Origin: Dehalococcoidia bacterium
GTDB taxonomy: Bacteria; Chloroflexota; Dehalococcoidia; Lucifugimonadales; JAGWBF01
Direction of reading: 5' to 3'
DNA: 64,000 nt
NCBI GenBank assembly: GCA_034421095.1
Contig: DAOUKR010000009.1
Location: 12,694 to 76,693, forward strand
In this document: piece after piece, positions 4,203-56,865 of the stretch
Layout: every line of letters begins with the position of its first letter
Numbering within the stretch: the first letter of the stretch is position 1
The notes under the pieces: model-generated
Told to the model about the DNA's origin: nothing
What the model saw: only the letters and a program-made list of their open reading frames with translations
Database searches by the model: none
Program-made: the position numbers and the translations under genes

Positions 4203-5657
4203 CTAACCTACCTCGAAACTTCCACGGCCTTCGTCCAGATACACGGTTGTACCTACACGGGACAAGGTGATTTTCTGCTGGTAAGTGCCTCCACTTACTT
4301 GATGCTCCGACCTGTGGATTTCCGTAGACCAGGCCACTCCCCGGGGGTCTGGGCCGTTCACCAGGGCCTCTCTCAGCACCCGTCCATCCATATCTTCCCC
4401 TCCGGGAATGCCAAGTATCCCCAATATCGTCGGAGAGAGGTCTACGTTGCCTGAGGGGATGTCCAAACTGATTCCTCTCCTGAAGCTAGGCCCGCTGGCA
4501 ATAAGGACGTTCCGTATCTCGTGTGCGCTCATGGAACCGTGCTGGCCCACTCCTGGAGTTCCGCTCGATGAGTAAACGTAACCGGGGAATCCGGCTTGAT
4601 TAGTCCTGTGCTCCCATTTGAAGGACATCGTAATCTCAGGCGCACGGAAGCCCTCGTTGCCGACCAGAACAGCCGGGAGTGTGCCCGGGATACCTGTCGC
4701 AGACTCGGAGGTTATAAGAGGGCCGCACCAGGGTTGCACCATTAGCCACTCTGCCAGCCTCTCTGATACCCTTCGGTCGCTATCATGTACGTAGAACAGC
4801 ACCGAGCCTCCATTAGGGGCTACCACCACCCCGCCGGGTCTGTCACCACACGGGAAACCTGCTTCTCGGACGCGAGCTTCGATGTCTACAACGCCGGTGA
4901 TAGTCGAGTAGCCATGGTCCGAGACGACTATCAAGTCTGTCTCAGCAGATAGGCCATTATCTTCGAGCCAACTAAGAAGTCTGCCTAGCTGCTCATCGGC
5001 GGCATTGATGGCCTTCTTTGCCAACTCCGAGTTGACCCCTTCCGCATGTTGCGCACCGTCCGGTTCCGAGAACCAGATGAGGAGGACCGATGGAGACCGC
5101 TCTGGCAGGAGGTAATTGGTGGTGATGTCAACTGCATGGGCCATCCTCGCTGAGTTCGGTATGCCGTGCTCGGGCCACTGGCCGAAACGGCTTAGAACCT
5201 CATCGTGGAGACTGGACGGTAGGCAGAAGTTGGGGTGGACCGTCGCTCCGCCGGAACGCTCAGCATTGGGGTTATGCAGGTAAGCGTTCCCGCTTGTCCC
5301 TATGCCCACAGCAATGTATTCCTTGTTATGCTGGGAAAGGATGTCAGCTAGAGTAGGGGCGAGCAGGACATGTCCGGTCTTCTTGGCAATCTGTGCTAGC
5401 TGGGGCTCCATGACGGGGAGAGCATGGCCTGGGTCGAAGTCCCTGAAGACAAGTGTATTTCCTGCTATGCCGTGGCCGCCGGGATGTCGGCCCGTTACTA
5501 TGCTTGCTACGTTTGTGCGTGTCACAGTAGGGAACCCGGCGTGATGTCGGTCGAAAATGACCCCCTCGGCAGCCAGCTCCGCCAGGTTAGGCATCAGTTC
5601 GGACGTCACCTGTGAGGGTTGAAGCCCATCGAACACCACTATCAATAAAGGTCTCAT
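4203..5657 (-). CDS. Nucleotide pyrophosphatase/phosphodiesterase (alkaline phosphatase superfamily)
   Basis: I set the start at MRPLLIVVFDGL (cat at 5655-5657). The track's longer ORF runs through the tRNA-Pro gene. FPTVTRTNVASIVTG is a Thr-nucleophile motif, and VVSDHG is a metal site. Confidence 0.75.
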   Translation of the reverse strand: MRPLLIVVFDGLQPSQVTSELMPNLAELAAEGVIFDRHHAGFPTVTRTNVASIVTGRHPGGHGIAGNTLVFRDFDPGHALPVMEPQLAQIAKKTGHVLLAPTLADILSQHNKEYIAVGIGTSGNAYLHNPNAERSGGATVHPNFCLPSSLHDEVLSRFGQWPEHGIPNSARMAHAVDITTNYLLPERSPSVLLIWFSEPDGAQHAEGVNSELAKKAINAADEQLGRLLSWLEDNGLSAETDLIVVSDHGYSTITGVVDIEARVREAGFPCGDRPGGVVVAPNGGSVLFYVHDSDRRVSERLAEWLMVQPWCGPLITSESATGIPGTLPAVLVGNEGFRAPEITMSFKWEHRTNQAGFPGYVYSSSGTPGVGQHGSMSAHEIRNVLIASGPSFRRGISLDIPSGNVDLSPTILGILGIPGGEDMDGRVLREALVNGPDPRGVAWSTEIHRSEHQVSGGTYQQKITLSRVGTTVYLDEGRGSFEVG

Positions 5658-5737
5658 TTGAAGCAGAACACTCAGGACATCCGAAGTACATACGCAGTCA
5701 ATGACATCCGGGGCCGAGTCACGTAAGCATTGCAGCG

Positions 5738-5813
5738 TGGTCGGGGTGAGTGGATTCGAACCACCGACCTCCACGTCCCGAACGTGGCGCGCTAGCCGCT
5801 GCGCTACACCCCG
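5738..5813 (-). tRNA. tRNA-Pro (anticodon CGG), CCA encoded
   Basis: The reverse complement reads CGGGGTGTAGCGCAGCGGCTAGCGCGCCACGTTCGGGACGTGGAGGTCGGTGGTTCGAATCCACTCACCCCGACCA. It forms a cloverleaf with anticodon loop TTCGGGA and a GGTTCGAATCC T-arm. Confidence 0.9.
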
Positions 5814-6036
5814 ACGAGTCATATTATAAACCCATATCCTGGCGTTTTGATAGACCTACGTTCAGATACTACAGCGACGGACGCCATAATTAATGGGGTA
5901 TAATTAGGTGCATGGTTCCCGATACATGATATATAGGATTCTAAGCTCGAGTCGGTATCGGCATTCTATTGAGAATGTCTTGCTAGAATCAAAGGAGAGC
6001 GAATAAATCTTCACATTTATATCTGAGGGGTGATAC

Positions 6037-7674
6037 ATGGCGGTCATGACCGGGGCACAGGCACTTGTACGTTCTCTGGCAAGGGAAGGGGTTGACGTGG
6101 TATTCGGGCTGCCAGGCCAACAGATTATGGAGGTCTTTGACGCTCTGCAAGGAGAGCCGTCTATACGTCTGGTCACGGTGCGCCATGAGCAGGGCACCAC
6201 ATATATGGCCGATGGCTATGCCCGCACTACGGGAAAGGTGGGCGTAGGTCTTGTAGTGCCAGGCCCCGGCGCCCTCAACGCCACTGCCGGTCTTGCCACC
6301 GCCTACGCCACCTCGTCTCCGGTACTCCTCATCAGCGGTCAGATGGAGAGCTATAACTTGGGCAAGAGACGCGGCGCTTTGCACGAGGTGGAAGACCAGC
6401 TGGATATTTTCCGGCCCATCACCAAGTGGTGTGACCGGATTCTCCAAGTGGATGGGATCCCGGATGCTGTCCACGAAGCCATGAAACAGCTACGCACCGG
6501 CAGGCCCAGGCCGGCAGAGTTGGAGATACCCTGGGACATCCTGCCGGTATCCGCCGATGTAGACTTGCCCGAGGCTGAAGTCTTTCCCAAACAAGCTCCA
6601 GACCTCGATAAAATAAAGACGGCGGCTGAGCTACTTCAACATGCTCGGAGGCCTCTCATCTGGGCTGGAGGAGGAACAATAGCCGCCGATGCCTCCCATG
6701 AACTTATCGAGCTTGCCACCACCCTCAACGCTCCGGTCATTACGACTCACCAGGCCAAGGGCATCATACCGGAGGACCACCAACTCTCGCTGGGGACCTT
6801 CTACTATGGGCATGGCCCTGGGTATCGTGCCATGCCCCAGGCCGACGTGATTCTGGCAGTAGGAAGCCGGCTCCACCTCACCCCCAGTGTCCCTTGGGCT
6901 TTCCAGGCTCACCAGAAACTCATCCACATAGACGCCGATTCCGCGGAGTTGGGCAGGAACCAGACCACTCAGGTGGCCATCACATCCGACGCCAGGCTGG
7001 GCCTCCAGTCAATTCTATCCCAGCTAGGAGGAAAATCGGCCAGCGAGTGGACTCACGGAGACATGGCGACCATCAAGAGGGAGGCTTATAGCGAGATTAA
7101 AGAGATGGCCCCTCTGGAAGTGGAGATTATCGAGACCCTGCGCCAGGAGCTTGAGGATGATGCTATCGTGGTAGGAGGAATCACCGGTGTGGGCTACTGG
7201 AGCTATCTGGCCTTTCCGGTGCTGAAACCTCGCTCCTATCTAACATCATCCTACTTTGCGACTTTGGGCTATGCCTTCCCCACCGCCATTGGAGCCAAGA
7301 TTGGAAACCCGGACCGTCAGGTTGTGGCTATATGTGGCGATGGCGGCTTTATGTATGGCATACCGGACCTTGCTACGGCCGTGCAGGAAGGTGTCGGCCT
7401 GGTTGTGCTCGTGTTCAACAACAGTTCCTTTGGCGCTTCCTTGTCCGACCAACAGACGCGTTTTAAGGGCAGGGTGTACGGCACTGAGCTTCAAAATCCC
7501 AATTTTGCTCGTTTGGCCGAGTCCTTTGGCGCGACGGGAATTGCGCTTTCAGGGCCGGGCGAATTGAGGGACGCCCTCAGAGGTGCCTTGAGGCGCAATG
7601 GCCCAGTGGTAATTGAGGTGCCCATGCCCCTCCTTACCTCGCCCTTTCAGGTTTCTCCAAAGGGTATGGAATAG
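6037..7674 (+). CDS. Thiamine-diphosphate-dependent enzyme (acetolactate synthase large-subunit-like)
   Basis: 545 aa with a three-domain ThDP layout. The ThDP-binding motif is CGDGGFMYGIPDLATAVQEGVGLVVLVFNNSSFG (GDG-x(n)-NN). Confidence 0.8.
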   Translation: MAVMTGAQALVRSLAREGVDVVFGLPGQQIMEVFDALQGEPSIRLVTVRHEQGTTYMADGYARTTGKVGVGLVVPGPGALNATAGLATAYATSSPVLLISGQMESYNLGKRRGALHEVEDQLDIFRPITKWCDRILQVDGIPDAVHEAMKQLRTGRPRPAELEIPWDILPVSADVDLPEAEVFPKQAPDLDKIKTAAELLQHARRPLIWAGGGTIAADASHELIELATTLNAPVITTHQAKGIIPEDHQLSLGTFYYGHGPGYRAMPQADVILAVGSRLHLTPSVPWAFQAHQKLIHIDADSAELGRNQTTQVAITSDARLGLQSILSQLGGKSASEWTHGDMATIKREAYSEIKEMAPLEVEIIETLRQELEDDAIVVGGITGVGYWSYLAFPVLKPRSYLTSSYFATLGYAFPTAIGAKIGNPDRQVVAICGDGGFMYGIPDLATAVQEGVGLVVLVFNNSSFGASLSDQQTRFKGRVYGTELQNPNFARLAESFGATGIALSGPGELRDALRGALRRNGPVVIEVPMPLLTSPFQVSPKGME

Positions 7675-14533: not shown

Positions 14534-15622
14534 TTACTCCTGGCCCTCGGTGTTAAGGTACTCCATGCGGCCGGCCACGTAGCTCCAATCGAGATAACCT
14601 GTCTCGAAGTCCCTGTACCCCGAGGAGGGGTCGTACTGGCTCCTGCTGTGCAAGACCCTGAAATTCTGAATTAGTAAACAATCGCCGCTTTCCATGCGGA
14701 AGCGGTATTGGTATGCCGGGTCGTTCAGGTACTGGGAGAAGAGGCTGTAAGCCCGATAGTACCCGGCTACCTCGTCGAAGGGGAGTTGCCAGTCAATGTT
14801 CTTGGGGGAGTAGTAGACGGCTTCGACTTCCCCGGGGCCGTCCAGGACCAGGATGGAAGTGGTGTGCTTGAAAAGGTATCCGGTCTGCCTGTCATACTGA
14901 CGAAATCGTATCGGCGTGCGGGCCAACACCTGGAACTCATCGGGGTGGTGCAAGCGAAAGTCCCTTGCCACTCGAAATCCGTCCACTAGGATGCTTTCGC
15001 CGCCAGACGTGGTGTTCCCGTGGGCGTAGAGGAACTGCAACAGCCGCTCCCCGTACCTGTAGGAGCCGTCGGTGTGGGGCAGCAGGCTATCGCCGGCGTC
15101 GGAAAAGGCCAGGTCCTTGGCCGCCGGCGTTGGCTTGACCCTGGATGAGTCCCCATATTCCGTTGTGTGAACAGGGCCAATGGCGCCGAACCAGTGATGC
15201 AAGTCTTCCGGAGCAAGGCGGCGTATAATGGCAAAGCCCAGAGTCGTGAGTTGACGAGTCCATGACTCGAAGGAAATGGAGGAAGCATCCAAGTGTTCCG
15301 GCGGGTGCGCCTCAAGCCATGGATGGTCCCACATCGTGAGTGCGCTTTGATGCTCCCTCCTGGGCACCGGGTCGTAAGAGTGGCTCAGGAGCCATCCGAT
15401 TGGGAAAACGCTTTCGTGGGGTGGGGCTTCCTTCCAGAGAATGCGAAGCTCTTCTGCCCCTTCCTCAACGGAGATTGGCTCCGGGGGAATAGGGCTGAGA
15501 CTTACGTCGTAGATTTTTTGAGACGAATTTGGATGATAACACGCAGGGCATAAACAATGGTCACGCAGCCACGTGTAATGAAAGCGCTTGCCATGCACAG
15601 TCACATAACCTTCGTTCATCAT
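14534..15622 (-). CDS. Gamma-butyrobetaine hydroxylase-like Fe(II)/2-oxoglutarate dioxygenase (TauD/TfdA superfamily)
   Basis: The N-terminal zinc-knuckle domain (RDHCLCPACYH, DUF971-like) is followed by a TauD-like core with an HxD facial-triad element (LLPHTDGSY). Confidence 0.7.
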   Translation of the reverse strand: MMNEGYVTVHGKRFHYTWLRDHCLCPACYHPNSSQKIYDVSLSPIPPEPISVEEGAEELRILWKEAPPHESVFPIGWLLSHSYDPVPRREHQSALTMWDHPWLEAHPPEHLDASSISFESWTRQLTTLGFAIIRRLAPEDLHHWFGAIGPVHTTEYGDSSRVKPTPAAKDLAFSDAGDSLLPHTDGSYRYGERLLQFLYAHGNTTSGGESILVDGFRVARDFRLHHPDEFQVLARTPIRFRQYDRQTGYLFKHTTSILVLDGPGEVEAVYYSPKNIDWQLPFDEVAGYYRAYSLFSQYLNDPAYQYRFRMESGDCLLIQNFRVLHSRSQYDPSSGYRDFETGYLDWSYVAGRMEYLNTEGQE

Positions 15623-26571: not shown

Positions 26572-27123
26572 ATGCGTGTGGTAGGTGGTGTTGCCAAAGA
26601 CAAGAGGTTACGCGGGGCCACAATCCCCGAGGCGCGTCCCACCTCGGAGTTGGTTCGTGGGGCCATTTTCAACATCCTCGGTCCACTCGAGATTGCTCAA
26701 ACCAGGGTCCTGGACCTTTACGCAGGCTCCGGCTCCCTTGGCATTGAGGCTCTGAGCCGGGGTGCTACAGAGGCGGACTTCGTCGAGCGCCATCCACGCC
26801 AGTGTGCTGCCATTAAGGAAAATCTGGCAACAACAGGCTTTACCGGCAAAGCGAGGGTGTATCGCATGGATGTACTGGCCTCACTGTCGGCGCTGGAAGG
26901 TCGCTACCAGTTGGTGCTTATGGACCCGCCCTACAAGCTCACTACTCTGGGCGAAACCCTGGACAGCCTGGCCGGATCGGGCCTATTGGAAGGAGGGGCT
27001 ACCGTAGTGGTAGGGCACTCAAAGAGGCTGGTTCTGAGTGACCGATACCGGAGCCTGTCCCTAATCAAGACCTACCGTTATGGCGACAGCACAGTGGACC
27101 TTTTTGAACAAGGAGGCCCTTGA
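26572..27123 (+). CDS. rsmD: 16S rRNA (guanine966-N2)-methyltransferase RsmD
   Basis: RVVGGVAKDKRL...RPT, LDLYAGSGSLGIEALSRGA and LVLMDPPY are present. The conserved rsmD-coaD pairing supports the call. Confidence 0.85.
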   Translation: MRVVGGVAKDKRLRGATIPEARPTSELVRGAIFNILGPLEIAQTRVLDLYAGSGSLGIEALSRGATEADFVERHPRQCAAIKENLATTGFTGKARVYRMDVLASLSALEGRYQLVLMDPPYKLTTLGETLDSLAGSGLLEGGATVVVGHSKRLVLSDRYRSLSLIKTYRYGDSTVDLFEQGGP

Positions 27124-27611
27124 TGGCAACAGCTATATATCCAGGGTCCTTCGACCCCGTAACCCTGGGTCATGTAGACATAGCTACACGGGCAGCAGCT
27201 ATATTCGATAGATTGATAATAGCCATCTATGACACTCCGTCAAAGAACCTCCTGTTCAATACCGAGGAGAGGGTGGCCTTCTTTCGGAAATCCGTGGAAC
27301 ACCTGAATAACGTAGAGGTCAGATACTTCAAAGGACTCGCGGTGGAATGTGCCCGCGACTTTGGAGCAAGCGTGATCGTAAGGGGCTTACGTGGTGGTTC
27401 GGATTTCGAGTACGAGTTCGAAATGGCCTACATGAATAAAAAGCTGGCTCCGGACGTGGAACTGGTTTGCATGATGTCCAGCTTGCCATATCAGTACGTG
27501 AGCTCAAGTCTTCTCAAGGAGGTGGTTGGGTTAGGTGGAGACGTGACGGGGTTGTTGCCGCCACACGTGATAGAAGCCGTAAAAACGAAACTGAACGCGC
27601 AAGACCGATGA
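27123..27611 (+). CDS. coaD: Phosphopantetheine adenylyltransferase
   Basis: The ATG overlaps the rsmD TGA (TGATG). AIYPGSFDPVTLGHVDI is the (H/T)xGH nucleotidyltransferase motif, and SSSLLKEV is also present. Confidence 0.9.
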   Translation: MATAIYPGSFDPVTLGHVDIATRAAAIFDRLIIAIYDTPSKNLLFNTEERVAFFRKSVEHLNNVEVRYFKGLAVECARDFGASVIVRGLRGGSDFEYEFEMAYMNKKLAPDVELVCMMSSLPYQYVSSSLLKEVVGLGGDVTGLLPPHVIEAVKTKLNAQDR

Positions 27612-47478: not shown

Positions 47479-48414
47479 ATGGCAACTGCAACAGAGTTGG
47501 AGTCTTTCGTCAGCAGTGTCACCTGCCCACCAGATTTTGACTCCTTTTGGCAAAGGGTCCTGGCAGAGTTGAAAGACATACCTTTAGAGCCTGAGATTAC
47601 CCCGGTGCCCCTTCGTTCGACGCCCGATGTCAACGTATACGAAGTCCATTATCTCAGCCTGGGGGGTATTCGCATAGCAGGATGGTACTGCGTGCCAGCC
47701 AAAGGCGCTGGTCCCTTCCCCACCCTGATTGAGTTTCCCGGTTACAAGAGTGAGCCTGGTCTGCCCAGGGCTTGGGCACAGCGGGGTGTTGCCATCTTGA
47801 GCGTAGCCGTCAGGGGGAAACTCAGAAGCAATGAGGATTTCAACCCGGGCTATCCCGGTCTCCTTGTCAGCGGCATAGACAGCCCGGACACCTACTCCTA
47901 CAGAGGCGTAATCTCCGACTGTTCACGGGGCGTAGATTTCCTGCTCACACGTCCGGAGGTAGACAAGGAGCGGATATTCGCCCACGGTGCAAGCCAGGGC
48001 GGTGGCCTCACCCTGATTAGCACTGCCTTGCGGTCCGAAATCAAAGGTGGAGCGTCTGCATGTCCGTTTCTCTGTGCATTCCCAGACTCACCCAGTATGG
48101 CGCTCACTTACCCCTACAACGAGTTGAACTGCTACCTACGGGCCTACCCCGACCGGAGAGAGCAGGTCCTCACGGTCCTGAGCTATTTTGACGCCGTAAA
48201 CTTTGCCAGCCGTATTCGTTGCCCCATGGCCATAGGCATTCCCCTAGAAGACACTATCTGCCCTCCTGAGACCCAATACGCAGCCTATCGGAACCTGGCC
48301 GGACCAAAAGAGGTGTGGCTAGTACCCAATGCCGCCCACGGCACACCCGCAGAGTACCTCGATATGGAGGTTGCATGGTTGAAGAAGCTAATGGGGCTTG
48401 ACACGTCGGATTAG
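47479..48414 (+). CDS. CE7-family acetyl xylan esterase / cephalosporin-C deacetylase
   Basis: The AXE1 N-terminus is PPDFDSFWQRVLAEL. The nucleophile elbow is GASQGGG. Asp (PLEDTICPP) and His (NAAHG) are also present. Confidence 0.8.
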   Translation: MATATELESFVSSVTCPPDFDSFWQRVLAELKDIPLEPEITPVPLRSTPDVNVYEVHYLSLGGIRIAGWYCVPAKGAGPFPTLIEFPGYKSEPGLPRAWAQRGVAILSVAVRGKLRSNEDFNPGYPGLLVSGIDSPDTYSYRGVISDCSRGVDFLLTRPEVDKERIFAHGASQGGGLTLISTALRSEIKGGASACPFLCAFPDSPSMALTYPYNELNCYLRAYPDRREQVLTVLSYFDAVNFASRIRCPMAIGIPLEDTICPPETQYAAYRNLAGPKEVWLVPNAAHGTPAEYLDMEVAWLKKLMGLDTSD

Positions 48415-48426
48415 GAGGTTGGAACC

Positions 48427-49317
48427 ATGGTACAGAGTGGAGTTGCGTGGGATAGCTACTGGAGACAGGTTGATGACGAGCTAGGGAAGGTATCCCTGGG
48501 ACAGGACATCCAAAGGAACGAATTCTACTCCGAGGCAGAGTGGACGGTGTACAATGTCCATTGCAACGGATTGGGCGGCTACCGGCTATTCGCCAGGCTA
48601 TCAATTCCCACGGGAGACGGGCCCTTTCCCGGCCTGATCCAGATGCCCGACTATCAAAGCGCTGTGGACATCCCCTTTACCCCTCTGCGACGTGATATGG
48701 TTGTCCTCAACGCCACCCATCGAGGCCAGCGTGGCAGTGAAACCCCGTTCAGAGCGAGCTACCCGGGATTGCTCACTCAAGGTATAGGCAACTCATCCTC
48801 CTACATCCTTCGCAGGGTCTACGCTGATGCCCTCCGGATGTTTGACCTCCTGACGGCACAATCTGTCGTAGACCCTCAACGCATCGCTGTCGCCGGAGCA
48901 GGGCTGGGCGGGACACTGGCACTGGCAGCGGGAGCGTTGCGCCCCCACGTCAGAGCCCTGGCCGTGGATACGCCGTTGATGGTTGGCTCGACCGATGCGG
49001 TGGAGCTTGCCGGTGATGCCTACCCGTTGGGTGAACTGAATGACTACTTCCGGGCTTACCCCGGGCGGCGAGATGCTGCCCTGGACACGATGGCAGTATT
49101 CAATCCCTTAGCCCTGGCCGAGCGAGTGACTTGCCCCGTTCTTCTCAGCACGGGCGCGCGGGACCGGGGCCAATGCCCGCCTCCATTGGGAGAGGAATTG
49201 GCAGGACGACTGAGGCATGGAGAACTCCGTCAGTACCCCGGCGGGAGCGAGGGTGGAGGACATGCACATGGCGTCGTCCGCACGCGCTGGCTAAGGGAGC
49301 AGACGGGCCTGGCGTAG
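48427..49317 (+). CDS. CE7-like alpha/beta-hydrolase paralog lacking the nucleophile Ser
   Basis: It is collinear with the upstream gene. RIAVAGAGLGGTLAL aligns without gaps to RIFAHGASQGGGLTL, so Ser is replaced by Gly. The Asp (GARDRGQCPP) and His (GGHAHG) regions are retained. Confidence 0.7.
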   Translation: MVQSGVAWDSYWRQVDDELGKVSLGQDIQRNEFYSEAEWTVYNVHCNGLGGYRLFARLSIPTGDGPFPGLIQMPDYQSAVDIPFTPLRRDMVVLNATHRGQRGSETPFRASYPGLLTQGIGNSSSYILRRVYADALRMFDLLTAQSVVDPQRIAVAGAGLGGTLALAAGALRPHVRALAVDTPLMVGSTDAVELAGDAYPLGELNDYFRAYPGRRDAALDTMAVFNPLALAERVTCPVLLSTGARDRGQCPPPLGEELAGRLRHGELRQYPGGSEGGGHAHGVVRTRWLREQTGLA

Positions 49318-50155: not shown

Positions 50156-50375
50156 ATGTTCGACCTTCTCAACGTAGTTCCTCCTGAAGCGTCACTCAAA
50201 ATGACATGGGGAATGTGCAAAGAGACAGATGTAAGCAATGGCCTCTTGGGAAAGGCCATCTTCCAGACATGAAAAGCCCCCCTATACCCAGATAAAAGTC
50301 CGATTACGGCATGACGATGCCGATTTGCTTATATCATCTGTGCAAATGAGCCTTTTACTGGGCATATTCAAGCAT

Positions 50376-50404
50376 TTGACAACCTTGGAAGATGCAGATA
50401 CTAT
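50376..50404 (+). promoter_or_regulatory. Near-consensus sigma-70-type promoter
   Basis: TTGACA (50376-50381), an exact 17-nt spacer, then TACTAT (50399-50404). The predicted TSS near 50411 is at the start of the structured region. Confidence 0.55.
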
Positions 50405-50410
50405 ATCTAG

Positions 50411-50790
50411 GACTCGCTGCCGTGAGCAGTAAATCCGCAGTTGAAAGGCGGTCAAGACAGTGAGTAAGGGTGTACCAAGTACGGCTTGGTTGAAGCCGTG
50501 GCACATAGAGAACCAGGAGCACCGGCATCTACGCTCCTCAAACACCTCCACTTCGGCTACCGTGAGCATCCCGTCTCGCGGTAAGCACGTCCTCCCCTGC
50601 GAGCCTTAGCTCCTCCACCAATCCCTCTCGCGCAAGTCCCGGGGCATTAACCTCCCCGCGCCAATCCATCTCAGCGCTGCGGTAAGGCGTCTTTGTGCCT
50701 TGCGCTCTCCGGGGAAAGCCCCCGAGACAGGATGTGCATATCATTATACAAGAGCCAACATAGCATTTTGCACTAAAATCAATACGAATT
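50411..50790 (+). ncRNA. Unclassified highly structured RNA: long 5' leader of the panD operon or an independent ncRNA
   Basis: About 380 nt with no credible ORF and at least 8 local GC-rich helices. Examples: 50474-50490 ACCAAG/CTTGGT; 50515-50538 AGGAGC/GCTCCT; 50640-50658 CGGGG/CCCCG; 50673-50706 nested AGCGC..AAGGC/GCCTT..GCGCT; 50710-50724. There are mutually exclusive pairings at 50474-50499. No match to any RNA family I can recall. Confidence 0.4.
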
Positions 50791-50802
50791 GTGAGGAAAA
50801 TA

Positions 50803-51159
50803 ATGAGAACTTTATTGAGGTCAAAGATTCACAGGGCATACGTTACCGACGCCAACCTGGATTACGTTGGAAGCATCGTAATTGACCGGGACCTGATGGA
50901 CAAGGTGGACATGTGGGAGTACGAGAAGGTCCTTATCTGTGACATCACCAACGGCAACCGGTTCGAGACATACGCAATTTACGGCGAGAGAGGGTCCGGC
51001 ATCATATCGGTGCAGGGTGCCGCGGCAAGGCTAGTCGACAAGGGGGACTGCGTCATAATAATGTCCTTCGACGTGACCGATGAGCCGGTAGAGCCGGAGA
51101 TGATTCTGGTGAACGAGCGGAACGAGTTCGTTGAATATCTGGGAAAGGTCAAGGTATGA
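50803..51159 (+). CDS. panD: Aspartate 1-decarboxylase (pyruvoyl-dependent)
   Basis: The ATG at 50803 follows GAGGA. MRTLLRSKIHRAYVTDANLDYVGSIVID is a PanD N-terminus with the G-S self-cleavage site. Confidence 0.9.
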   Translation: MRTLLRSKIHRAYVTDANLDYVGSIVIDRDLMDKVDMWEYEKVLICDITNGNRFETYAIYGERGSGIISVQGAAARLVDKGDCVIIMSFDVTDEPVEPEMILVNERNEFVEYLGKVKV

Positions 51160-51974
51160 GCAGCAGATTCACCGAGCAGGAAACGGAGCGGTATTACGAC
51201 GCCCAAGACGTTATCTATCGCTCGATATGGGACTCGGAAGGGAGCGTCCATTGGGGGGTCTTCGACCAGAGCACTGGTGACGATTTTCTCAAGGGGTGCG
51301 CCAACCTGAACAACATAATGGCGGATAAGGGCCGCATTGACGCCACCTCCAGGGTGTTGGACCTAGGTTGTGGAAGCGGCACCACCGCCATGTGGCTGGC
51401 CGAGGAGCGTAACTGCCGAGTGACAGGAGTAGACCTGAGTGGCGTCCGTATCCAGAACGCCAAGAACGATCTGCAAGCCCGCTCCCAAGAGATGCGGCAG
51501 AACGTTGCCTTTGAGAAGGCCTCTGCCACCGACCTACCTTTCCCCGACGGCTCTTTTACCCATGTATGGAGTCAGGCCGTAATTTACCACGTCCCCGACA
51601 AAGAGGGGACCCTGAAGGAAGCGTACCGGGTGCTGGCCGATGGAGGAATCTTCATCTTCGACGACCTTGTAAAGCCAAAGCAGGACATTAGCGAGTCGGC
51701 ACAGACCTACGTGTATGACCGGCTACTTTTTGACACACCCTTCAGTTTCGAGTCATACAGTGACGCCCTACGGCAGGCGGGGTTCAAGGTGCTCAGTTCC
51801 CAAGACCTCTCCTCTCACCTGAAAAAGAGCTATTCTCTTCTCTCCAGCATGGCTGGCGCAAAAACCGAAGGCCCCATGGATGAATACGAGACCCTGGCAT
51901 TGGCGTACGCAAAGACCGCTCAGGCGATAGAAGACGGTGAACTGGGGTGGGGCCTGTATCTGTGTCAGAAGTGA
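51156..51974 (+). CDS. Class I SAM-dependent methyltransferase, sarcosine/dimethylglycine N-methyltransferase-like
   Basis: The ATG overlaps the panD TGA (ATGA). It has YYD-x-IYRSIWDSEGSVHWGVF, SAM motif VLDLGCGSGT, LPFPDGSFTHVWSQ, GGIFIFDD and a C-terminal GWGLY. This layout recalls the SDMT / geranyl-PP C-MT clade, from memory. Confidence 0.65.
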   Translation: MSSRFTEQETERYYDAQDVIYRSIWDSEGSVHWGVFDQSTGDDFLKGCANLNNIMADKGRIDATSRVLDLGCGSGTTAMWLAEERNCRVTGVDLSGVRIQNAKNDLQARSQEMRQNVAFEKASATDLPFPDGSFTHVWSQAVIYHVPDKEGTLKEAYRVLADGGIFIFDDLVKPKQDISESAQTYVYDRLLFDTPFSFESYSDALRQAGFKVLSSQDLSSHLKKSYSLLSSMAGAKTEGPMDEYETLALAYAKTAQAIEDGELGWGLYLCQK

Positions 51975-52019
51975 GCGGCGTGACGCGGTATCTCTTAGCC
52001 GGTGCTATAGGGAGCAGTG

Positions 52020-52646
52020 ATGGAGAATCTGAATAAAGTCCAATGGGTATACTCGTCCCAGAACAACCAGGAACTGGCGGAACGGTACGACCAATGGGCC
52101 AAGGACTATGACGCCGACCTGGACCAGGACTTCGGCTGGATTGCGCCCCAGCGTGTCGTGGACTTCTTCTCCAAGCACGTGCCCAGGGACGCAAGAATCC
52201 TCGATGCAGGCGCTGGCACAGGCCTGGCAGGAGAGATTCTCAGCAGGCTGGGATACGGGGAGCTAGTAGCTATGGACCTGTCCCAGGGTATGCTGGATGA
52301 AGCCGCGAAGAAGGGCGTCTACCAGGAGTTTCACCGGATGGTCATGGGCGACACCCTGGACTTCCCCTCCGACTCCTTTGATGGGGTGATTACCGTGGGG
52401 GTCCTCACCGTGGGACATGCCCCCGCCAGTTCCCTTGATGAGCTTGTCCGCGTCACCAGGCCGGGCGGCCATATCGCCTTCTCGCTGCGGCCTGACGTGT
52501 ACGAGGAGAACGGCTTCAAGGAGAAGCAGACGGAGTTGGAATCTGCCGGCAAGTGGAAGCTGGCGGAGGTGAGTGAGCCGTTCCAGGCCCTCCCCGTAGG
52601 CGAGCCCGACGTTTTCCACCAGGTCTGGGTGTACCAAGTCAGCTAG
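52020..52646 (+). CDS. Class I SAM-dependent methyltransferase (Methyltransf_11/25-like)
   Basis: The ATG at 52020 follows GGGAG. ILDAGAGTGLAG is SAM motif I, with LVAMDLS and GGHIAFSL. Substrate is unknown. Confidence 0.7.
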   Translation: MENLNKVQWVYSSQNNQELAERYDQWAKDYDADLDQDFGWIAPQRVVDFFSKHVPRDARILDAGAGTGLAGEILSRLGYGELVAMDLSQGMLDEAAKKGVYQEFHRMVMGDTLDFPSDSFDGVITVGVLTVGHAPASSLDELVRVTRPGGHIAFSLRPDVYEENGFKEKQTELESAGKWKLAEVSEPFQALPVGEPDVFHQVWVYQVS

Positions 52647-52789: not shown

Positions 52790-53416
52790 TCAATCCAGGG
52801 GACCTGCCACGATTTTGCCGAAGGTCTTGGGCGCAGTCTCGTCCCGAAAAGGTAGGCTATGGGCGGTTGATTCCCACCCCTCTCCCGTGTCTATCTCTAT
52901 TCCCAGGCCGTCGGCTATCCTCACCATGTAGTTGTAAAGGGCGGTTATGTGGACAATGTCTATGATGTCCTCGTCCGTCCAGCCAACGTCACGTAGCCCC
53001 TGTACGTTCTCCTGCATAACACCGGCCGGGGCTTCGTTGAGAAGCTCGGCGAACTCCAGCATTGCGACCTGCTTTGGAGTCAACCCGGCGTTGTGGTAGT
53101 CGGTCCCTGCCTGTCTCGCAAGCTGGGAGTCGGGGTCCTCGGTACGCAGAAACTCTGCGTGAGCCGTGGTTCAATACTGACACCGGTTGAGGGCCGAGAC
53201 CACCGTGGCAATCATCTGCCTCTCGGCCGGAGTCAACCCTGATTCGCTCTGCATGACATTCCGATTATGGATGGAGAGGGTCTTCATAAGGTGGGGGCGG
53301 AGACTGCTGACCGACATTACGTTGTTAATCGTTCCCCTCGCTTGGAGCGCCTCGTCATACATAGCCTTGAGCTCTCCCCTGGCCTCACCGTATGGAACAG
53401 TCCGCACGTAGGGCAT
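52790..53416 (-). CDS. AhpD/carboxymuconolactone-decarboxylase-family protein, probable selenoprotein (CxxU; Sec codon TGA at 53171-53173)
   Basis: Track ORFs 53171..53416 and 52790..53083 are in the same frame. The joined translation reads ...VVSALNRCQY-U-TTAHAEFLRTEDP...LTPKQVAMLEFAELL, which places the TGA at the second Cys of the family CxxCxxxH motif. A hairpin lies 10 nt downstream. Confidence 0.7.
53144..53160 (-). promoter_or_regulatory. Candidate bacterial SECIS hairpin
   Basis: On the mRNA it reads ACGCAGA-GUU-UCUGCGU, a perfect 7-bp stem with a loop starting with G-U. It begins 10 nt 3' of the in-frame UGA. Confidence 0.55.
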
Positions 53417-53454: not shown

Positions 53455-54486
53455 TCACTTGAAATTCGGCATTACCTTTTCGGTGAACATCTTCATAGAG
53501 CCAAGGACGCGCTCATAAGGAATCTGCCCGCCCGTATTGAACTCCAGTATCATGCCCGATATGCCCAGTTCCTCCTTGAACTCCTGGATGCGCTCCGTAA
53601 CGTACTCGGGTGTACCGTACATGTACCTTCCGGCTTTCAATAGCTCGCTGTAAGGCATGGTGGCGCTGGCCCGGCTCCTTTCGGCTCGCTCCTCGGTAAG
53701 GGAAAAGCGGCTCGTTATCCGATAGTCATAGTCCTGTTGATGCTTGACGCTGGCCTCAGGCTCGGAGTGGGCCTTCTCGGTGGTCTCCGCCACGTAGACG
53801 GCAAGGCGCATATTTGCGTCGGGCTCGCCCGGATGTCCAGCCTCCTTCCATGCCTTCCGGTACTCTATCAGCTGTTCTTTTAGCTGTGGAATGGGAGCAC
53901 CGGCAAAGAAGGAGATGTTGTACCCCATGCTTCCCAATAGTGGGAAGGTGTCTGCACTTAGAGTACCGATGCGTATGGGCGGGTGGGGCTTCTGATACGG
54001 CTTGGGCACTATGGTAACGTCGTCAAAGTGCCAGTACTGGCCGTGGTGGGAGAAGGTCTCGTTGTTCCACGCCTTCAAGACAACCTCCAGCCCTTCGAAG
54101 AAGCGGTCCCGAGTCTCGGCATATTCCATGTTGAAACCCCGGTAGAACATGGTCAAGGCGCTGCGCCCTATGCCAAACTCGAACCTCCCCTGACTGATGT
54201 GGTCAAGTATCGCGGCTTGCTCGGCCATGTTCAAAGGATGAATCAACGGAACTACAAATACTGCCCCTCCAATCCTTATCCTTTCGGTGCGGGATGCAAT
54301 GGCAGTGCCAATCAGGAGCGGAGAGGACAGCAGGGAGCGTTCGGGGGCGAAGTGGTATTCCGCCAGCCAGACGGAGTCGAACCCCATCTTCTCCGCCATC
54401 ACTGCCTCGTCCAGATGCTCCATGTAGGCGTCGTTTTGAGTCTTACCTTCCCGCACGTGGAACTCGGTGAATATGCCGAACTCCAT
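53455..54486 (-). CDS. Luciferase-like (LLM class) flavin-dependent monooxygenase
   Basis: Start at MEFGIFTEF (cat at 54484-54486, AAGGAG upstream). The track's 114-aa N-terminal extension is translated repeat/intergenic sequence. GFDSVWLAEYHF is the typical LLM motif. Confidence 0.8.
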   Translation of the reverse strand: MEFGIFTEFHVREGKTQNDAYMEHLDEAVMAEKMGFDSVWLAEYHFAPERSLLSSPLLIGTAIASRTERIRIGGAVFVVPLIHPLNMAEQAAILDHISQGRFEFGIGRSALTMFYRGFNMEYAETRDRFFEGLEVVLKAWNNETFSHHGQYWHFDDVTIVPKPYQKPHPPIRIGTLSADTFPLLGSMGYNISFFAGAPIPQLKEQLIEYRKAWKEAGHPGEPDANMRLAVYVAETTEKAHSEPEASVKHQQDYDYRITSRFSLTEERAERSRASATMPYSELLKAGRYMYGTPEYVTERIQEFKEELGISGMILEFNTGGQIPYERVLGSMKMFTEKVMPNFK

Positions 54487-54842: not shown

Positions 54843-56687
54843 CTAGTTACACGCCGGGTCACACCAGATATGCTCCCACTTGTATATCTGGGCGTAGGCC
54901 GAGGGGTTAATATGGAAGTTCTGAATACTGTCGTCGGCGTACATGAACCTTATCACCCAGTAGAGGGGCACCCAGGGGACCTCTTCAAGGATGATGTCCG
55001 CCGCCTCTATGGACAGCGCCCTTCTCTTATCCCGGTCAAACTCCCGTGTCTGCAGCTCGTATAGCTCGTCTATCCTCGGCGGAGGAGCCGAGCGGGAGAA
55101 TCTCCGGTAACTCGCGCCCGTCCTGTATTGCTGGGTGAACATATCCTCAGGGTCATGAATCACGAGACCGGAGCTAGAGGTATGGGCCTCATAGTCTCCG
55201 GAGTCACGTCGCTGTGAGTAAGTGTTGACTTCAACATTATCGAGGCTAAGGTCAACTCCCAGCGTCCTTCTCCACTGGTCAGCTACAACCTCACCAACTT
55301 CTTTAACGCCCAACAGACCGTGAGTCATCATGGTGGAACTGAATCCATCGGGGAATCCGGCTTCAGCCATCAGCCTCTTTGCCTCGGCCAGGTCGTCGGG
55401 GTGCTTCTCTCCGTTGACCTCTCTGAAGCCGGGTAGCTGGACCACTTCTTCCTCAGACGGGGCGAACCAGAACCCGGGAGGCAGAGGGTAACCCATGGTC
55501 GCTTGCCCATTGGTCGTGAGTTCTATTATGGGCTGACGGTGAAGCGCCAGGTGAAGCGCCTTCCTCACCCTTGGGTCGGCCCAGGGTTCCCTCTCGTGGT
55601 TGGTATGTATCTGCATGACGCTGGCAGGACCATGCCAGTGTATCCTACCACCTTGGACCTCTTCACCAAGTCGTATGGCATCGGAGTTGGGCATCACTGA
55701 TACCATCGAGGTGGACATGAGGGTCTGTCCCGTCTTGTAGGCTGCAAAGGAGGACGCTGAATTGCCAACGATGTACCATATCATGCCGTCAAGGTAGGGC
55801 CGCCCCTCTTTCCAGTAATTTGTGTTCCTGGTGTACTCAATGGCGATGTCCTTCTGATAATTCTTCAGGGTGAAGGGGCCCGACCCCAGGATGTTCCCCA
55901 CAAGCTTCATGTCCACGCCAGTTTCCACGTGGTGCTTGGGGAGAATCGCCATTTGCCCAAGGGCAAGATATGGAAGGAAGGCCACTGCAGGGTAGTCCAT
56001 GTTCACTTTAATCGTATAGTCGTCTATTATCTCGGAGTCTTTGTAGTAAGGGTCTAGGAGGAGGGGACTGACGCCGCCCCTAGTCTCGTCGCGGTTCACC
56101 GACCAGTCCAAGCTGAACTTGACGTCGGCGGCCGTAAGAGGGGTGCCGTCGTGCCACATGGCGTTCTCATCCAGCGTGAAGGTATAGGAGAGGCTGTCGT
56201 CGCCCAACGTCCAGGTCTTGGCCACGTCGCCCCTCAAGTCAACCGGGTCATCGGTCTCGGGGTTGTACTCGATAAGGTTGTTATACATAGGTTCGTTGAC
56301 AACTTGTTGGGTGAATGTGCCCTCATAGCCGGACCAGTGCCCCGGGGAGGCATAGTGCTGCATGGTGAGAACGCCGCCCCTGGGGATAACAACTTCCGGC
56401 TCCGGCGTAGGAGTGGGGACCGGGGTAGGCAGGGCGATCCTTGTCGTCGGCGTCGGCTCCGGCGTCGGCTGAGGGGTCTCACCAGGCGCCAATGTCGGCG
56501 TTGGCGCAGGGGTATTGGTGGGTTCAGGAGTATTGGTGGGCACAGGAGTGTCAGTGGGTAGCGCGATGGTTGGTGGTGGTGTGGCAGTGGGGTCTTCCCC
56601 ACCTCCGCACGCTACGGCCAGTATCAAGACTAAAGCCAAGGGTACGAAGAGCAGGAACTTGGTCTTGAACATCCAACTAGGAGACAT
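54843..56687 (-). CDS. ABC transporter substrate-binding lipoprotein, family 5 (peptide/nickel/opine type) with a Thr/Pro-rich tether
   Basis: Start at MSPSWMFKTKF (GGAGGTG upstream). The lipobox is LAVACGG. A PT-rich linker of ~90 aa is followed by an SBP_bac_5-like body (WHDGTPLTAADVKFS, NTNYWKEGRPYLD). Confidence 0.8.
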   Translation of the reverse strand: MSPSWMFKTKFLLFVPLALVLILAVACGGGEDPTATPPPTIALPTDTPVPTNTPEPTNTPAPTPTLAPGETPQPTPEPTPTTRIALPTPVPTPTPEPEVVIPRGGVLTMQHYASPGHWSGYEGTFTQQVVNEPMYNNLIEYNPETDDPVDLRGDVAKTWTLGDDSLSYTFTLDENAMWHDGTPLTAADVKFSLDWSVNRDETRGGVSPLLLDPYYKDSEIIDDYTIKVNMDYPAVAFLPYLALGQMAILPKHHVETGVDMKLVGNILGSGPFTLKNYQKDIAIEYTRNTNYWKEGRPYLDGMIWYIVGNSASSFAAYKTGQTLMSTSMVSVMPNSDAIRLGEEVQGGRIHWHGPASVMQIHTNHEREPWADPRVRKALHLALHRQPIIELTTNGQATMGYPLPPGFWFAPSEEEVVQLPGFREVNGEKHPDDLAEAKRLMAEAGFPDGFSSTMMTHGLLGVKEVGEVVADQWRRTLGVDLSLDNVEVNTYSQRRDSGDYEAHTSSSGLVIHDPEDMFTQQYRTGASYRRFSRSAPPPRIDELYELQTREFDRDKRRALSIEAADIILEEVPWVPLYWVIRFMYADDSIQNFHINPSAYAQIYKWEHIWCDPACN

Positions 56688-56865
56688 AAATGCACCTCCA
56701 TGAACTTTCGCCGCTTTGGCAGGCCTACAACCTGTTTTGATTCCACGATAAGCTATCATACTGCTCACAGTCATGTCAACAGGTTTTACCCATTTAATCA
56801 TGACCTTTCACTTGTCACCCCAACCCACACTCGTAGTGACATGAGTGGGCCAGCCTCAATATGTC

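Follow-up and report, generated by a model that had tools for sequence, protein, structure and literature searches.

A panD-methyltransferase operon of a Dehalococcoidia bacterium as a candidate route to beta-alanine betaine

Why is a gene for aspartate 1-decarboxylase (panD), whose usual company is panB and panC, coupled instead to two methyltransferase genes? This question is raised by a 64,000-nucleotide (nt) stretch of contig DAOUKR010000009.1 (assembly GCA_034421095.1, positions 12,694 to 76,693 of the forward strand) from a Dehalococcoidia bacterium, called the window below. Here panD is followed on the same strand by two genes for S-adenosylmethionine (SAM)-dependent methyltransferases, named MT1 and MT2. 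An initial annotation had read this arrangement as a candidate pathway for the N-methylation of beta-alanine, by analogy with the two-enzyme glycine betaine route. Conserved linkage, gene fusions and partners from trimethylammonium chemistry support this reading, which on balance we favour. We consider it likely that the operon yields some N-methylated beta-alanine product. With somewhat less confidence we propose that the three genes, together with a small open reading frame (sORF) in front of them, form a dedicated sORF-panD-MT1-MT2 operon for the de novo synthesis of beta-alanine betaine (N,N,N-trimethyl-beta-alanine).

All genes of the operon lie on the forward strand of the window, and their open reading frames (ORFs) were confirmed. 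The panD gene extends from an ATG at 50803 to a TGA at 51159, encodes 118 amino acids (aa) and is preceded by GAGGA 5-9 nt 5' of the start; a longer version starting at a GTG at 50791 is possible, if unlikely. Its stop codon overlaps the start of MT1 in an ATGA at 51156-51159, as had been described. MT1 (ATG at 51156 to TGA at 51974) encodes a class I SAM methyltransferase of 272 aa, in which all the sequence motifs pointed out before were found (YYD..IYRSIWD..VHWG, VLDLGCGSGT, LPFPDGSFTHVWSQ and GWGLY). MT2, also a class I SAM methyltransferase (208/209 aa), ends with a TAG at 52646 and begins with a GTG at 52017 or, likelier, with an ATG at 52020, which has GGGAG 7 nt on its 5' side. The second methyltransferase gene follows the first closely, as stated in the initial annotation, but the gap is 42 nt to the GTG (45 nt to the ATG) and not 43 nt.

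Judged by sequence, PanD is a bona fide member of the aspartate 1-decarboxylase family, with 138.5 bits against TIGR00223 (equivalog cut-off 106) and 143.9 bits against PF02261 (cut-off 25), and the corresponding activity is predicted. Its segments SKIHRA, DYVGSIVID and NGNRFETYAI find their counterparts in alignments with the M. tuberculosis (2c45) and E. coli (1ppy) enzymes. Because this alignment spans the Gly-Ser self-cleavage site and the NGxR..TYAI substrate-binding segment, PanD looks catalytically competent; the roles of its Lys, His, Tyr, Arg, Thr and Tyr substrate residues and of the Gly-Ser processing site are assigned after the E. coli enzyme.

A housekeeping PanD for pantothenate and coenzyme A synthesis, brought next to methyltransferases of unrelated substrates by operon hitch-hiking, would have the same appearance. 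The protein sequence is indistinguishable from that of canonical PanD, no second panD was seen within the 64-kb window or in the loci by motif search and tblastn, and coaD, identified by eye from the N-terminus of its product, is encoded at another place in the window (27120-27611). However, no panB or panC signature was found in the window or in 49 loci by a rough test with signature motifs, and no PanB or PanC was found in the Pfam-annotated neighbourhoods examined. The window panD thus resembles that of the canonical panBCD pantothenate cluster as a full family member with aligned catalytic features, but differs from it in lacking linkage to panB and panC and in being coupled, or in relatives fused, to methyltransferases.

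The linkage is widely kept. A scan of one genome per species gave 37 loci with an MT1-family gene (94-49% identity), mostly labelled Dehalococcoidia or Chloroflexota (SAR202), with single bins labelled Latescibacterota, Myxococcota, Paceibacterota and Chloroflexia; several of these labels are possibly unreliable. One match of 28% identity (L038) was set aside as outside the family. In 30 of the 37 loci panD is located immediately 5' of MT1, either overlapping or at a distance of at most ~26 nt, and in four others it lies within 1.4 kb on the same strand (34 of 37 in total). MT2 is present in 33 loci, six of which carry two MT2 paralogues in the order panD-MT1-MT2a-MT2b. Clustering of the flanking ORFs showed that these change completely from clade to clade. 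Since the neighbours turn over in this way, the unit that is conserved is panD-MT1-MT2 itself, and the arrangement is not due to chance. The linkage seen at first in a single genome is accordingly kept in relatives whose MT1 identity is as low as about 50%, both in SAR202 clades and outside them.

Further copies of the unit were detected via MT2 homologues and a DNA-motif scan (L046-L049, L055, L059-L062). Two of them are tandem arrangements, panD-MT1-panD-MT1-MT2 (L047, 1974-6627; L048, 3349-6627), and in the first of these a DDE transposase gene is inserted after the second panD. Duplication of panD-MT1 as a unit and persistence of the linkage through a complete turnover of flanking genes both speak against hitch-hiking.

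A gene for an alpha/beta hydrolase (~292-299 aa), weakly similar to 3-oxoadipate enol-lactonase and to esterases, stands beside MT2 in at least 13 loci (L003, 9549-10448; for example L004-L016 and L047-L049). Its orientation varies by clade, and it is not found beside the window operon. Flanking transporter and regulator genes were considered as functional clues and discarded, as the flanks differ by clade and only this hydrolase recurs.

Apart from being adjacent, the three genes also occur fused. PanD and MT1 form an in-frame fusion of 389 aa in two clusters, one of which contains four fused members from separate sources, and in one locus (L049) the fusion is followed by MT2. Fusions of MT1 with MT2 (~460-495 aa), to whose C-terminal domain MT2 is homologous, make up 12 representative clusters, which would make MT1 and MT2 obligate partners. 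A 674-aa protein of the cyanobacterium Symploca sp. SIO1A3 (NER48858.1; L039, 4596-6620), annotated only as aspartate 1-decarboxylase, joins a PanD domain (119 bits, above the cut-off) to a domain resembling glycine/sarcosine N-methyltransferase (GSMT) and an MT1-like domain. This triple fusion has six members, from several Symploca bins and Joint Genome Institute (JGI) metagenomes. Its GSMT-like domain scored 57 bits against a cut-off of 350 for NF051855 and was the sole GSMT-like case found. In another locus (L043) panD and then a SAM synthetase gene come after an MT1-MT2 fusion. Fusion of PanD in frame with one or two methyltransferases in independent lineages, and the position of panD between an MT1-MT2 fusion and a SAM synthetase, argue further against a housekeeping enzyme, and we regard that explanation as very unlikely.

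Genes that accompany the methyltransferase pair in other lineages bear on its chemistry. In one locus (L053, 6001-8714) a LysA-like (fold-III) pyridoxal phosphate (PLP)-dependent decarboxylase is the translationally coupled partner of an MT1-MT2 fusion, and this would repeat with a different amine the logic of a decarboxylase feeding the methyltransferase pair; a Kup K+ transporter gene lies near this fusion. Another MT1-MT2 fusion (L050) comes after an MscS channel gene and before a gene for a CmcI-methyltransferase-TauD protein. In Reyranellaceae (L040, 5093-10612; also L041 and L042) and, with a different gene order, in a second lineage (L052), the fusion is translationally coupled to a dioxygenase of the gamma-butyrobetaine/TmpA type, near genes for a carnitine acyltransferase and a major facilitator superfamily transporter. 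A triple fusion of MT1, MT2 and a dioxygenase of this type also exists (P0141); a 790-aa MT1-MT2-gamma-butyrobetaine-dioxygenase-like fusion is encoded at 4641-7013 of an AT-rich Logan contig (SRR23089130; L044). That contig is full of ORFans and may derive from a giant virus or a protist; close to the fusion it encodes a protein kinase and also a PLP enzyme of the histidine/serine-decarboxylase-like kind.

Characterised members of the gamma-butyrobetaine/TmpA dioxygenase group hydroxylate trimethylammonium substrates. The operons of Reyranellaceae and of the second lineage are candidates for a prokaryotic pathway, independent of lysine, that leads to a carnitine-like hydroxy-betaine and to its acyl esters; one published account (PMC8085414) states that carnitine-type biosynthesis has not been seen among prokaryotes. 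An MT2-like gene of yet another locus (L063) follows genes for a pterin-binding methyltransferase, a non-Pyl MttB-family protein and an MtgC-like corrinoid protein. Systems of this type are known for the demethylation of quaternary amines, and the context is again one of quaternary-amine metabolism.

Fusions and partners together point to a decarboxylase that would feed its amine to a methyltransferase pair building a trimethylammonium group. Because of the fusions and of the dioxygenase, acyltransferase and MttB partners, N-methylation to a quaternary ammonium is the most economical reading of the pair, and beta-alanine is predicted as the most economical acceptor wherever PanD is attached.

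To which families do the two methyltransferases belong? Both match Pfam Methyltransf_11/25 and are class I SAM enzymes. The best library models for MT1 were those of the DVU_1556 family (101.5 bits, cut-off 155) and of sarcosine/dimethylglycine N-methyltransferase (SDMT; NF041675, 100.8 bits, cut-off 550). As both scores are below the cut-off, MT1 is a member of neither family. The resemblance of MT1 to SDMT suggested in the initial annotation holds in so far as the SDMT model is the second-best library match, but the score of 100.8 against 550 places MT1 in a separate family. Exhaustive HMMER searching showed that MT1 heads a family of its own with 74 representatives at E <= 1e-30, among whose distant relatives fusions of the GSMT-SDMT type appeared only at ~100 bits. 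Clustering with enzymes of known, unrelated substrates was not seen: the SDMT model is among the two best for MT1, both of them far below cut-off. MT1 belongs to a distinct family, distantly related to SDMT and to phosphoethanolamine N-methyltransferase (PEAMT), and we predict that it is an N-methyltransferase acting in the later steps.

The AlphaFold model of MT1 has a predicted local distance difference test (pLDDT) value of 92.9. Foldseek matched it at template-modelling (TM) scores of ~0.8 with SpnF, AtmM, MitM, RebM, SDMT (2o57) and PfPMT, and the structural group also takes in geranyl-PP C-methyltransferase, TleD and phosphoethanolamine N-methyltransferases. The best matches among solved structures are natural-product methyltransferases; the TM score to the putative SDMT of Galdieria (2o57) is 0.82, and SpnF, AtmM, MitM and RebM score equally or better.

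The best relative of MT2 among solved structures is METTL27/WBSCR27 (PDB 7qcb), both by sequence (E = 7.6e-23 over residues 23-187) and as the top Foldseek match (TM 0.70; pLDDT of the MT2 model 85.9). GSMT (NF051855) was not among the 25 families listed for MT2. The earlier analogy with the two-enzyme glycine betaine route needs a correction here: MT2 is METTL27-like and not a GSMT. We predict that MT2 is a METTL27/WBSCR27-like N-methyltransferase acting in the early steps. Human METTL27 resembles MT2 as its best structural match by sequence and fold, but is itself an orphan enzyme, so that no function can be transferred to MT2. Its substrate is unknown, with a small molecule suspected (PMC9240639), and the bacterial context of MT2 may suggest candidates for it. 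Determination of the substrate from structure was tried for both enzymes and abandoned: the models are confident, but the Foldseek matches do not discriminate between substrates or between methylated atoms.

Several observations weigh against a pathway to beta-alanine betaine. Neither MT1 nor MT2 reaches the cut-off of any curated family, and the fold group of MT1 holds O- and C-methyltransferases at equal structural similarity. Because the fold is equally near to N-, O- and C-methyltransferases, it is from context only that we infer N-methylation by MT1. The genes panD and MT1 are missing next to MT2-like proteins (71-72% identical) that are encoded beside a glycyl-radical enzyme (L045, L063), and because of these proteins MT2 is not exclusive to beta-alanine; in both loci the MT2-like gene comes directly after the genes for the glycyl-radical enzyme and its activase (L045, 2542-6648; L063, 1-6633). 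Three of the 37 MT1 loci lack panD (L008, L012, L022), which also fits a housekeeping PanD. No osmolyte transporter or osmoregulator is consistently adjacent to the operon. How many methyl groups the end product would carry (one, two or three) is likewise a matter of prediction, and SAR202 bacteria are uncultured.

Some of these observations would also suit a different atom or acceptor, for example O-methylation of the beta-alanine carboxylate, C-methylation, or N-methylation of glycine, gamma-aminobutyric acid (GABA) or ethanolamine, with beta-alanine needed for something else. RebM, AtmM, MitM, TleD and geranyl-PP methyltransferase, as O- or C-methyltransferases, have the same TM score to MT1 as the N-methyltransferases; the MT1/MT2 pair evidently uses other amine sources in other lineages; and MT2-like proteins occur in glycyl-radical-enzyme and MttB contexts. 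Against this, beta-alanine is the acceptor that most economically explains the physical fusion to PanD, and the dioxygenases resembling TmpA and gamma-butyrobetaine dioxygenase, the carnitine acyltransferase, the non-Pyl MttB and MtgC-like proteins and the GSMT-like domain all point to N-methylated or quaternary amines. We give such an alternative little probability and retain N-methylation of beta-alanine as the preferred reading.

In the proposed pathway PanD would convert L-aspartate to beta-alanine, and MT1 and MT2 would share three successive SAM-dependent N-methylations turning beta-alanine into beta-alanine betaine. Speculatively, MT2 may take the early step or steps and the SDMT/PEAMT-like MT1 the late one or ones; this order is suggested by the GSMT/SDMT analogy and by the Symploca fusion, in which a GSMT-like domain stands in the place of MT2 and the MT1-like domain is kept. 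The clade with panD-MT1-MT2a-MT2b supports the pathway in having as many methyltransferases, three, as there are methylations. In marine SAR202 bacteria the product would be a compatible solute or, possibly, a piezolyte or a store of methyl groups or nitrogen.

The same logic could lead to another end product, namely N-methyl- or N,N-dimethyl-beta-alanine, or an intermediate that is processed further, for example by esterification, by hydroxylation to give a carnitine-like compound or by use as a head group. The window operon has only two methyltransferases as compared with three in one clade; an alpha/beta hydrolase accompanies the operon in many loci despite rearrangements; and the partners coupled to related MT1-MT2 fusions include dioxygenases and carnitine acyltransferases. 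The window itself encodes a GBBH-like_N plus TauD dioxygenase (14534-15622, reverse strand), unlinked to the operon at a distance of 36 kb, which scored 219 bits for 2-trimethylaminoethylphosphonate dioxygenase (TmpA) and 178 bits for gamma-butyrobetaine dioxygenase, both below the cut-off. This enzyme could act on a trimethylammonium compound, conceivably the operon product. However, such a dioxygenase is unlinked to the operon in the window and in every SAR202 locus examined, the dioxygenase partners elsewhere imply a fully trimethylated product of the methyltransferase pair, and two enzymes suffice in the glycine betaine pathway and one in plants (PMC6657504; PMC10784701). A partly methylated or further processed product is therefore in our view unlikely, if less so than a housekeeping PanD or a different acceptor, and beta-alanine betaine is still the product that we propose.

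Comparison with known systems places the operon among pathways of a familiar general kind. In the two-enzyme glycine betaine route (NF051855 plus NF041675), for which halophilic bacteria, archaea and cyanobacteria have either two single proteins or a fusion, N-trimethylation by SAM is likewise divided between two class I methyltransferases, as predicted here, with fusions in both cases. MT1 is ~30-35% identical to SDMT-type domains, and its Symploca relative carries a GSMT-like domain. In contrast, the MT1 score stays far from the SDMT cut-off, MT2 is METTL27-like and not GSMT-like, and the window operon has a leader ORF and a dedicated decarboxylase; because this decarboxylase is coupled or fused, the predicted acceptor is beta-alanine and not glycine.

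PfPMT and plant PEAMT, which N-methylate iteratively to a trimethylammonium product, belong to the structural group of MT1 (TM 0.80-0.82). The MT1 alignment contains invariant His145 and, at the N-terminus, Tyr14 and Tyr21, which may correspond to the Tyr19/His132 dyad of PfPMT. Unlike MT1, these enzymes have a phosphorylated substrate and no decarboxylase partner, and identity is 17-23%.

No match to PF00891, the Pfam family of COMT-type enzymes, was found for MT1 or MT2 at E <= 0.01, and this suggests an origin independent of the plant enzyme BANMT. BANMT of Limonium latifolium (Q84N56), the sole beta-alanine N-methyltransferase known to have been characterised, has the same overall SAM reaction as that predicted here, from beta-alanine via N-methyl- and N,N-dimethyl-beta-alanine to the betaine (PMC6657504), but is a single trifunctional enzyme of the COMT type (PMC10784701), whereas the window operon has two enzymes. 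In North Pacific communities methyl label derived from SAM enters beta-alanine betaine, and only the plant enzyme was cited in that work (Boysen et al., PMC9321204). Open-access literature on beta-alanine betaine consisted only of plant enzymology, engineering with the plant enzyme and metabolomic detections; no prokaryotic pathway to it, and none for the methylation of GABA to butyrobetaine, was found in open-access full texts. The initial annotation, too, had known of no characterised bacterial pathway. New here would be a betaine synthesis by stepwise N-methylation with enzymes from different families, a dedicated decarboxylase and a leader peptide.

How might the operon be controlled? Alignment of the 5' regions revealed a conserved 24-nt block, CTCCCCTGCGAGCCTTAGCTCCTC, at 50592-50615 of the window. 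Use of this block as an operator or promoter was ruled out, as its stop codon varies between TAG, TAA and TGA from locus to locus and the last Pro codon before the stop varies at the third base only. Instead, the block closes a short, unannotated coding ORF, which has a GTG start and 49 codons (50460-50609, forward strand; MSKGVPSTAWLKPWHIENQEHRHLRSSNTSTSATVSIPSRGKHVLPCEP-stop). Its 3' end, TCCCCTGCGAGCCNTAG, is found on the same strand 176-219 nt 5' of panD in most of 25 carrying loci, with four outliers, and also in clades with MT1 only 54% identical. In line with coding, three independent clades show an excess of substitutions at third codon positions (35 vs 14/18, 40 vs 16/27 and 176 vs 80/73), the frame is open at every locus while other frames carry stops, and the L018 clade has a strong Shine-Dalgarno sequence before the leader ATG. 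The peptides are 41-52 aa long. They begin with M-S/T-K, vary in their central part and agree again at the end, (K/R)Hx(L/V)PCEP-stop, of which PCGP, PYGP, PSNP and PTEP are variants.

A metagenome scan with the DNA motif gave eight matches, five of them with PanD/MT1 downstream, two chance-like and one at a contig edge. The peptide had no match in a collection of 5.8 billion proteins in a shared exact-word search, and both the clade with two MT2 genes and the loci outside SAR202 lack the ORF. The small ORF is separated from panD by a leader of 193 nt (50610-50802, forward strand; 158-201 nt in most loci), roughly conserved in length and conserved in sequence within clades only. A riboswitch in this long 5' region was considered and rejected: Rfam 15 gave no match at the gathering threshold in the window and only chance-level small nucleolar RNA matches at E <= 10 in 50300-50830, the folding energy of the leader is unexceptional (z = -0.55), and the sole helix predicted from a 12-sequence clade alignment shows no covariation.

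The small ORF is probably a regulatory leader peptide of the arrest type, as a candidate suggested by analogy: a poorly conserved peptide with an invariant Pro-stop end and a leader of ~190 nt matches the anatomy of TnaC-type systems. TnaC-tRNAPro stalls at its own stop codon as a response to a small molecule (PMC8450073, PMC8429421). Like TnaC of the E. coli tnaCAB operon, the window has a short ORF with a conserved C-terminus ending in Pro-stop, then a leader of ~200 nt; unlike it, the window leader shows no sequence similarity and no covarying RNA structure, and stalling is predicted only. Transcription would start near 50410, at a promoter-like site TTGACA-17-TACTAT (50376-50404, forward strand) 56 nt 5' of the ORF; the site is a weak consensus match only, and two close relatives, L001 and L002, conserve its -10 region. 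The leader ORF would then be translated. Control of expression through this 49-codon ORF, whose invariant ...HxLPCEP-stop end suggests pausing at termination, possibly modulated by a metabolite, is a tentative proposal for which we would put the chances at somewhat below even.

Among the methylated nitrogen metabolites of the ocean, beta-alanine betaine is quantitatively relevant, and it is the nitrogen analogue of dimethylsulfoniopropionate (DMSP). Should the proposed pathway hold, the conserved and readily recognised gene signature in SAR202, which is among the most abundant deep-ocean bacteria, would mark the makers of this betaine, and questions of SAM/methyl and nitrogen cycling could be tested in metagenomes and metatranscriptomes. 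It would represent a betaine pathway that evolved independently and draws on two uncharacterised families of methyltransferases, provide a functional lead for human METTL27 and a candidate new leader-peptide regulator, and expose related clusters that possibly encode carnitine-type biosynthesis in prokaryotes.

A wider and rather doubtful extension is that MT1 and MT2 constitute a previously unrecognised, widespread trimethylation module that turns decarboxylase-derived amines into betaines. With PanD this module would be the missing microbial route to beta-alanine betaine in SAR202, switched by a metabolite-sensing PCEP-stop arrest peptide; with gamma-butyrobetaine-hydroxylase-like dioxygenases and carnitine acyltransferases it would be a lysine-independent prokaryotic route to carnitine-like compounds; and small amines or amino acids would become candidate substrates of METTL27.

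The nearest relatives of the operon are found in Dehalococcoidia/SAR202 metagenome-assembled genomes. A horizontal-transfer island was considered and rejected, as the GC fraction across the operon (0.52-0.60) is ordinary for the window (mean 0.565). On the 5' side of the operon lie two tandem genes of the AXE1 family (47479-49317, forward strand; acetyl xylan esterase/cephalosporin-C deacetylase-like), and an exonuclease III-like gene of the opposite strand separates them from the operon; these neighbours are conserved only with the closest relative, L001.

Convergent with MT2 is a gene for an AhpD/CMD 'peroxidase-related enzyme' (52790-53416, reverse strand; TIGR01926 halves) with one in-frame TGA at 53171-53173. 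The TGA sits within C-Q-Y-U-T-T-A-H, so that CxxU replaces the CxxC of AhpD, and a hairpin (ACGCAGAG UUU CUGCGU) lies a few nt 3' of it. This is a probable selenocysteine protein with a bacterial selenocysteine insertion sequence (SECIS). Further along, a gene for a solute-binding lipoprotein (54843-56801, reverse strand) with a long Pro/Thr-rich linker (TPPPTIALPTDTPVPTNTPEPTNTPAPTPT...) lies ahead of two ABC (ATP-binding cassette) permease genes. It adjoins a gene for a luciferase-like monooxygenase (53455-54480), a family that is expanded in SAR202.

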